IMG/VR virus record: IMGVR_UViG_646311924_000020
Strand: one strand, 5' to 3'
Source: a virus
Lineage: Duplodnaviria > Heunggongvirae > Uroviricota > Caudoviricetes
DNA: 43,730 nucleotides
A program made the translations under genes and the position numbers. The notes beneath the pieces are model-generated. The model was given only the letters and a program-made list of their open reading frames with translations. It searched no databases and was not told where the DNA came from. Shown here one piece after another: positions 2,970-4,907 of this stretch. The first letter of the stretch is position 1, and the number at the start of each line of letters is the position of its first letter.

Positions 2970-4907
2970 CTAGCCATCATACCAAGCATTGTTAAGAAAC
3001 TGTGTAACTCTATTTCTTGATAGTTCAAATAGCTGAGTGCCATTTTGAACTCCAGACAGATCAAACCTGGTATTTTTGGTTAACATATCCCATCCCGTGG
3101 CAGCTGGTGATACATATATTTTGGTTGTAGCATTATAAATTATGTTGCCACGGAGACTAATGTCTGAAATAGAACCTGAACCTGCTACTTCCAGTGAAAT
3201 TCCTTTGTTGGATGCTGGACATAAAATAGTGTTGCCAGAAGCAATAAAACCAGTCATGGAACCCGACGTTAGCATGTCTATACCATCTGAAAGGGTAGAA
3301 GCGTTATTATTAGTGACCTTCACGCTTGACGTGTTTCCAGCGTCACCAGACTTGATGAAATTGGTTGTGTTGCTTGACCGGTTGTAGTCAACATTAAGCC
3401 CTGCTATTGTTGACGCTCTCAGGAAATAACTATCATTAGAACTATTGCCAGAGAATACATTTTCAGAAATATAAACATCTTCAGACATGGCTACATCTGC
3501 AAATGACTTACACGTCCCTTTTGCCCTGTTGCGGTTTATTTTGATGTGTTTACTACCACTACCATCATATGTCTTGATGAATAATGGGATTACAACAGCA
3601 CCGCCAATCAGGTTGTTATCCGTAACTTCAATCTCATCCGCATGGTTTCCTATATGAAATGCTTCTGTTCCATACTGTCCTGCAGACAATGTGTTTTTAT
3701 ACACTTTGCCATATGAGGTATTAGCATGAGTATCTATACCAAAGGTTTGACCAACACCAGATCCTTGAGTGAAGTATCGTGCAGCAAATCCGATAATATT
3801 GTTATTGTATATCTTGAAATTTGAAGCAGTGTAACCTTCGTCAGGCTCAATATCTATACCAGCTAATAGCGTATCACCTATGTAGTTTCCATGAATCTCA
3901 AACTGCCTAGTATCACTTCCAGCTGCAATAGCCATCCTATTGGTTGTAATGATGGTGTTATACCTTACCTTGAAATTTTTCGCGTTATAAACCAGGATGC
4001 CATCCCCACGCTGTATCCCTACACCTCCAATATTTTTGATATTACAATTTTGAATTAACAGCCCATCCGTCTGTACATCGTAGTTTGCATAATCACCGAA
4101 CCATATTCCTATGCCGCACTCACCGGATAGCGTTGAAATTCCAATATCGTGAACATTCACGCCGTCTATAACGATATTGCTGCCACCGTACCCACGAATT
4201 CCTCCATCCAGGGTGCCTGTTATATCAACATCAATCACTTTGGCGTTGGAGATGTTAGCCATAAGTATCCCGGATTTCTCTTGCTGAGTTCCGCCATCAA
4301 ATTGAAAGTTTAATGACCCGCTATGCATCACTTTATTACTTTTGTGGTTAATAGGTGAGCGAAGTTTTGAAACGAATCCGACGCCACCAAGTTTAACGCT
4401 AGGAGATTCAGAGTCTAATGCAGCGGATACAGCAGCATCGTTGAACTCTCCATCAATAGCACCCCATCCGCGAATGTCACCCTCTTCTCTCCACTGCTGA
4501 ATTTTAATATGCTGATCCATCGATGGGATTAGAAGATATCCATTTGGACCCGCTAGCTCTTGTCTTAATTGGTCAGGGTCATACTTCAGCACATTAGGAA
4601 AATAGAACTGCTGGGAACCATACGCATCATAAACAGCCATAGAATGGCCTTGTACAGTTACGAATTTGGCAATCTGTCCGTTATATACAGGGTAACCAGC
4701 AGCGTTAATGATGATTGGTTGCGAAACAGGGACGTGAGAGCCGTCTTCGTTTTCCACATAAACCTGAATCTGGTTTTCAGGATTTACCGGGTCCGTGTCA
4801 ATTTTACCGATATAAATTTTGCCATTGGCTACGGCTTTAAAAGAACGCGCCATAGTGAAGAGTTGCGAAGGCATAGATACAATCACATTGGCTGTAATGT
4901 CTGTCAT
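2970..4907 (-). CDS. tailspike protein: P22 gp9-type head-binding domain plus divergent beta-helix receptor-binding domain
   Basis: 645 aa; first ~110 aa ([70 protein letters not shown]) match the recalled P22 tailspike N-terminal domain; the rest is G/N/I-rich repeats typical of a right-handed beta-helix but not the P22 sequence. Confidence 0.9.

Follow-up and report, generated by a model that had tools for sequence, protein, structure and literature searches.

A known O111-specific tailspike of a P22-like Escherichia coli prophage and its frameshifted acyltransferase neighbour

Introduction

Which O-antigen is recognised by the tailspike encoded in IMG/VR virus record IMGVR_UViG_646311924_000020, and has that specificity been described before? 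The record, a stretch of 43,730 nucleotides that was analysed at its full length and is called the window here, is a segment of an Escherichia coli O111 chromosome that carries a P22-like prophage. Serogroup O111 belongs to the 'big six' of non-O157 Shiga-toxin E. coli. A receptor-binding domain (RBD) specific for O111 can serve in detection reagents, engineered phages and tailocins, and the domain described here has been put to this use before.

The tailspikes of phages P22, Sf6 and HK620 are trimers that dock to the tail through their N-terminus and cleave O-antigen. A first-pass annotation of the window described its tailspike as a chimera of a P22-type head-binding domain and a different receptor-binding beta-helix. 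It noted, correctly as a general point, that P22-like phages swap O-antigen specificity by such chimeras, and it held that the specificity of this one could not be told from the sequence alone. The last of these claims does not hold. The protein is a known O111-specific P22-like prophage tailspike, and its specificity has already been published and is not new.

O111 specificity of the tailspike and its relatives

The tailspike protein is identical to RefSeq entry WP_000129903.1. Its gene is 100% identical to DNA of eight E. coli O111 genomes, where it is annotated as 'phage tailspike protein', and PHROG 19784 ('tail spike protein') matches the full length of the protein (1-645/645). The protein is also identical at 644 of 645 residues (99.8%) to WP_136721029.1, the tailspike of the E. 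coli 110512 prophage, from which it is separated by the single substitution G553D. WP_136721029.1 is assigned to O111, and its RBD directs a tailocin against an O111 strain. The first-pass annotation had itself stated that full-length identity to a characterised tailspike would make this one simply known rather than novel, and this match is such an identity.

In a published classification of receptor-binding proteins (RBPs), 110512_Prophage_RBP (NZ_AP019761.1), ECGD1_RBP and STP55_RBP4 form the O111 subtype (PMC10408124, Virol J 2023). Membership in a subtype is defined there by at least 30% identity and at least 60% coverage of the RBD (PMC10408124). The tailspike falls within the O111 subtype, with 99.8%, 91% and 82% identity to the 110512, ECGD1 and STP55 proteins, respectively, over essentially the whole RBD.

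A homology search of the RBD, which had been proposed as a check, returns the O111-linked relatives ECGD1 and STP55. Gp151 of the phi92-like phage ECGD1 is 91% identical to residues ~119-645 and STP55 TSP4 is 82% identical to residues 113-644. Phage ECO111 5-P, which has E. coli O111 as its recorded host, has part of its spike gene on record, and the RBD is 89% identical over that part. Homologues with 81-90% identity are also present in P22-like Salmonella prophages. One homologue, which takes its name from Salmonella serovar Adelaide (O35), is 86% identical. The Salmonella O35 antigen is identical to the O111 antigen (PMC10609994).

Two of these domains have been tested experimentally. An R2 tailocin whose anchor was fused to residues 113-645 of WP_136721029.1 achieved a 4.0-log kill of the O111 strain 10-1120 (PMC11762384, 2025). 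The C-terminus of STP55 TSP4 placed in phage CBA120 gave plaques on O111 (PMC12737597, 2025). The evidence for O111 targeting is thus published evidence, obtained with the G553D variant and with the STP55 domain.

Domain architecture and mosaic junction

The N-terminal part of the tailspike matches the whole Head_binding profile PF09008 (profile positions 1-113/113, residues 1-113, E 1.7e-66, 222 bits) in Pfam. In a PDB sequence search, matches are confined to residues 1-118. The best match is Sf6 gp14 (7sg7, E 2.6e-65), followed by P22 gp9 in N-terminal constructs and as the full-length tailspike (2vky, 2xc1 and 1lkt, E 1e-45 to 1e-52). E-values of this size lie well outside what chance would produce. 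This N-terminal anchor is identical to Sf6 gp14 at 106 of 118 positions (90%) and to P22 gp9 at 87 of 116 (75%). Judged by its sequence, the head-binding domain is P22-type, yet it is nearer to the Sf6/HK620 branch than to P22 itself.

Past the anchor, the similarity changes. The BLASTP alignments to ECGD1 gp151 and STP55 TSP4 begin at LR(Q/S)(E/D)L. More than 1,100 complete E. coli genomes have matches (85-96% identity) to the 5' end of the gene, up to nucleotide ~350-446, and the full length is found in only 22. Because the 5' part of the gene is widespread and the full length is restricted to these 22 genomes, the mosaic junction is placed at about residues 113-120. Published constructs set the RBD as residues 113-645 (PMC11762384) or start it at residue 123 (PMC10408124). 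Relative to the rest of the prophage (G+C content 0.48), the anchor (0.43), the receptor-binding part (0.41) and the adjacent acyltransferase gene (0.33) are all poorer in G+C.

The tailspike is therefore chimeric. The claims of the first-pass annotation that the first ~110 residues are close to the P22 gp9 N-terminal domain and that the remaining ~530 residues are different are both borne out, the former by the Pfam match and 75% identity and the latter by the PDB matches, which stop at residue 118.

The RBD recurs on other anchors. STP55 TSP4 (UPU15645.1, Kuttervirus), ECGD1 gp151 (AMM43477.1, Justusliebigvirus) and, over its recorded part, the ECO111 5-P spike resemble the tailspike of the window from the LRxxL junction onwards, through to the C-terminus. 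The anchor of ECGD1 gp151 is entirely different (Tail_spike_N, PF18668), as is that of STP55 TSP4, which has a long N-terminus of 490 amino acids. ECGD1 and STP55 are lytic myoviruses with several spikes, whereas the tailspike described here belongs to a prophage.

The receptor-binding beta-helix

The generic family Beta_helix (PF13229) matches residues 212-373 in Pfam (E 6.2e-10). No solved PDB structure matches the ~530 C-terminal residues, the helix body included, in searches with the single sequence or with a profile of the RBD alignment. The sole exception in the profile search is a 'neck' of ~65 residues (LRxxL...DIRGWGA), which matches tailspike 9vvr. An AlphaFold2 prediction from the single sequence was unusable (pLDDT 37) and was redone with a 38-sequence alignment. 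The resulting model, a monomer, has a central right-handed parallel beta-helix of the kind expected of a P22-like tailspike.

The RBD family is small, with ~50 clusters at 58% identity or higher among 5.8 billion proteins. An exhaustive HMMER search gives 56 matches with E <= 1e-3 among 1.84 billion representatives. Only one further distant protein came from a second homologue search, which was word-indexed and used a profile. In an 18-sequence alignment that includes relatives down to ~20% identity, D234, R300, D302, R324, D352, E354 and Q387 are invariant and E263 and D392 are nearly invariant. By their conservation, the seven invariant residues are candidate active-site or sugar-binding residues.

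The beta-helices of P22 gp9, Sf6 gp14 and HK620 gp9, which target Salmonella O4/O9, Shigella Y and E. coli O18A1, respectively, have no detectable sequence similarity to that of the tailspike. Catalytic residues cannot be transferred from these three proteins.

Distribution in E. coli genomes

The distribution of the gene was surveyed in 5,426 complete E. coli genomes at megablast sensitivity. The full-length tailspike gene is present in 22 of them and the O111 wzy gene in 59. All 22 tailspike carriers are among the 59 genomes with O111 wzy (Fisher p 7e-46), and none is found among the 5,367 genomes without it.

The gene occurs in at least three prophage or integration contexts: the sbcB-dacD interval, the argW/intS site (strains 8E and HCM-22C-2) and a lambda-like prophage (EPSSH018). 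Nucleotide divergence between contexts is 86-95%. Together, the number of contexts and this divergence argue for repeated acquisition of the tailspike by O111 hosts.

Recognition and probable cleavage of the O111 antigen

The gene very probably encodes a tailspike of a P22-like O111 prophage with a conserved anchor and an O111-recognising beta-helix that most likely cleaves the antigen. Its source would be a P22-like (Lederbergvirus-type) prophage between sbcB and dacD of E. coli O111. Residues 1-113 would dock the spike onto the tail machine and the protein would trimerise, by analogy with P22, Sf6 and HK620. The beta-helix (residues ~119-645) would recognise the O111 O-antigen, a five-sugar repeat that includes colitose, and bind several repeats. 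By the same analogy, it would most likely cleave the chain as an endoglycosidase, so that the virion reaches the outer membrane. The RBD would be a horizontally exchanged cassette that is common to lytic phages from other families (ECGD1, STP55 and ECO111 5-P) and to P22-like prophages of Salmonella and Citrobacter.

Several observations weigh against parts of this account, and the first of them concern the chemistry. No direct glycan-cleavage assay was found in the literature for the tailspike or its close relatives, and tailocin killing and phage plaquing establish O111-dependent targeting, not hydrolysis. Structural matches of the model are generic (10-16% identity). Lyases, epimerases and hydrolases are all among them, and the structure therefore does not allow the chemistry to be assigned. 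A beta-helix that binds the O111 antigen without cleaving it, or that modifies it instead, with deacetylase or lyase activity for instance, would fit these observations. Such a spike is improbable on other grounds. Lyases and C5-epimerases require uronic acid, and the O111 antigen is not known to contain any. Those O-antigen deacetylases that are known among tailspikes have an SGNH fold and not a beta-helix. The carboxylates D302, D352 and E354 are invariant down to ~20% identity, as expected of an acid/base glycosidase. Cleavage of the O111 antigen is thus the preferred chemistry, by analogy with the characterised P22-like spikes.

The second concern is clonality, which inflates the O111 association, as most carriers are O111:H8. 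Since most carriers belong to one clonal group, any lineage-specific structure would show the same association. The receptor might then be another O111-associated surface glycan, for instance the group 4 'O-antigen capsule', or an O111:H8 glycan encoded elsewhere. This is very improbable. The RBD is also found in O111 wzy-positive genomes of O111:H2, of the chicken isolate HCM-22C-2 (5.0 Mb genome) and of EPSSH018. It is found in Salmonella too, with the homologue named from serovar Adelaide. The repeat unit of the group 4 capsule is that of the O-antigen, and a capsule receptor would leave the specificity unchanged. The O111 O-antigen remains the favoured receptor.

The third concern is the state of the prophage. 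An IS3-family element interrupts the gene for the P22-type scaffolding protein in the window. As a result, the prophage is probably unable to build capsids, and particles with the spike may never form in the source strain. The tailspike gene could accordingly be a decaying remnant with no current function there, which is a possible but on the whole unlikely state of affairs. The split scaffold gene, the frameshift in the adjacent acyltransferase gene and the IS1203 copies in related O111 prophages are consistent with decay. On the other side, the tailspike reading frame is intact and 100% identical in eight genomes, and a one-residue variant works when expressed. Decay bears on activity in the source host and not on the identity of the protein, which is that of the O111 tailspike described above.

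The prophage in the window

The features of the tailspike, the acyltransferase gene and the surrounding prophage are collected in Table 1.

Table 1. Positions of the tailspike, acyltransferase and prophage features in the window
Feature	Coordinates	Strand	Remarks
Tailspike gene	2970..4907	(-)	uninterrupted open reading frame, ATG start, 645 amino acids + stop
P22 gp9-type head-binding (particle-binding) domain, residues 1-113	4569..4907	(-)	Pfam PF09008, PDB matches
Mosaic junction, residues ~112-121	4545..4574	(-)	P22-like anchor similarity stops and ECGD1/STP55 RBD similarity starts
O111-type RBD, right-handed parallel beta-helix (predicted), residues 119-645	2973..4553	(-)
GIDIEPD motif, residues 350-356	3840..3860	(-)	contains invariant D352 and E354 (18-sequence alignment)
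AT3-family acyltransferase gene	1863..2929	(+)	convergent with tailspike, frameshifted in window; intact allele 1068 nt / 355 amino acids
Promoter-like site upstream of acyltransferase (TTGATG-17-TAGAAT)	1793..1821	(+)	consensus scan only, weak evidence
Poly-T tract 1	2014..2020	(+)	T7 in window (out of frame), T8 in intact alleles
Poly-T tract 2	2139..2145	(+)	T7 in frame in window; T8 in strain 8234; T6 in strain E2863; adjacent C deleted in HCM-22C-2
Terminator-like hairpin between ant and tailspike genes	5049..5068	(-)	consensus scan; position fits P22-type immI/ant-to-tailspike layout
IS3-family element	~18390-19710		orfA 18493-18819, orfB 18816-19706
Scaffold gene fragments either side of IS3-family element	17898-18386 and 19709-20104	(-)

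The first 1,173 bases of the window are dacD. Upstream of the spike, the window encodes a P22 coat protein, a portal protein, a gp16-like DNA-transfer protein and Arc-like regulators, and a P22-type antirepressor gene (P22_AR, ant) lies directly upstream of the tailspike gene. The gene order is ejection proteins, arc/mnt-like genes, ant, tailspike, conversion gene and then host dacD. The ejection proteins and the immI region (arc/ant) precede the tailspike gene, which thus closes a P22-type late region, as expected of a P22-like tailspike.

Related prophages occupy the same site. The 110512 (E. coli O111:H-) prophage shares its sbcB-dacD position and an adjacent frameshifted acyltransferase gene with that of the window, as well as 644 of 645 tailspike residues. 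Apart from G553D, it differs in its own immI region, which is unlike that of the window and carries an IS1203 insertion. In strain 05-3004, the prophage fills the sbcB-dacD interval and its integrase lies beside sbcB. The scaffold gene of the 05-3004 prophage is intact, and IS1203 copies are present in ninH and near the integrase end.

In NZ_CP077600.1 (1,998,000-2,032,000), the prophage lies between sbcB and dacD, ~20 kb from the O111 O-antigen cluster (galF-gnd). The wzy gene is at 2,008,122-2,009,174 and the prophage integrase starts at 2,031,273. With this spacing, the genes for the receptor are in close chromosomal linkage with the phage that targets it.

The neighbouring acyltransferase gene

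For tailspike biology, the window holds nothing new. The residual interest lies only in the uncharacterised, variably frameshifted acyltransferase gene that travels with the O111/O35 spike. Within the survey, its DNA is confined to tailspike carriers, and 21 of the 22 have it. At a Salmonella locus, an intact acyltransferase gene with 97.3% DNA identity stands beside a tailspike that is only 80% identical. The first-pass annotation had proposed that the tailspike and the acyltransferase form a serotype-linked module. The linkage stands, in 21 of 22 E. coli genomes and at one Salmonella locus; the partner gene is frameshifted in the window.

The gene starts at ATG 1863, with an AAGGAG ribosome-binding site upstream. 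Its frame ends after codon 53 in the window, where it is broken at a T7 tract. The open reading frame at 2021-2929 (GTG start, 302 amino acids) is the 3' part of the gene and lacks PF01757 profile positions 1-52, and a complete Acyl_transf_3 domain in a single frame is therefore absent from the window. When the tract is restored to T8, the protein matches PF01757 positions 2-322/326 (E 2.3e-28, Pfam).

Eleven copies of the gene were compared. Four are intact (strains 2013C-3250, 2009C-3675, TW05614 and 08-3342), three of them encoding 355 amino acids and one 356 amino acids through an in-frame insertion of 3 nucleotides. Three copies, that of the window included, have T7 at tract 1. Another three are changed at or beside tract 2 (T8, T6 and deletion of the adjacent C), and the remaining copy has a nonsense mutation and a 1-nucleotide deletion. 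Copies in the sbcB-dacD interval otherwise differ by 0-1 substitutions over 1,068 nucleotides; the two argW-site copies differ by 12-14.

The T7 allele at tract 1 is seen directly in the window, 05-3004 and 110512, and match lengths suggest ~10 more copies. Assembly error was considered as the source of the poly-T differences. It is disfavoured for T7, as this allele recurs across assemblies of different sources. The T7 allele thus looks real and inherited, and two singleton variants at tract 2 could be assembly errors.

The changes in tract length may reflect either on/off switching or repeated decay. It is conceivable, though we regard it as doubtful, that the tailspike-linked acyltransferase is a conversion enzyme that modifies the O111/O35 O-antigen and is switched by slippage at the two poly-T tracts, with the window in the OFF state. 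If this is true, lysogens would switch back and forth between an unmodified antigen and a modified one that gives resistance to phages with this spike.

Like oac of Sf6 and gtrABC of P22, the gene, which encodes an AT3 acyltransferase (PF01757), is of an O-antigen-modification type and lies between the tailspike gene and the attachment-site/integrase end. Unlike these genes, it is frameshifted in the window and has no close relative in phage records, where the best match has 31% identity. No NCBIfam model matches the acyltransferase or the tailspike. A literature search for O111 together with prophage O-acetylation or acyltransferase found nothing.

In a Citrobacter P22-like prophage (L018/L019, 6974-9344), whose RBD is 81% identical to that of the tailspike, gtrB/gtrC-like glucosyltransferase genes replace the acyltransferase gene. 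The slot is therefore the usual position for serotype conversion. The Citrobacter RBD suggests that a Citrobacter O-antigen related to O111/O35 exists.

Other genes in the window

The DNA-transfer protein gene is separated from the Arc-like regulators by two small genes, at 6610-7095 (-) and 7146-7535 (+). One encodes a predicted lipoprotein (MKRIIGVVAGAILLSGC...) with a weak PEGA-domain match (PHROG 6823) and the other a secreted-looking protein of 129 amino acids (PHROG 2651). Both are moron-like and may be candidates for superinfection exclusion. The lysis genes and the Q antiterminator gene flank a segment at 27875-28030 (-) with genes for tRNA-Thr (TGT) and tRNA-Asn (GTT).
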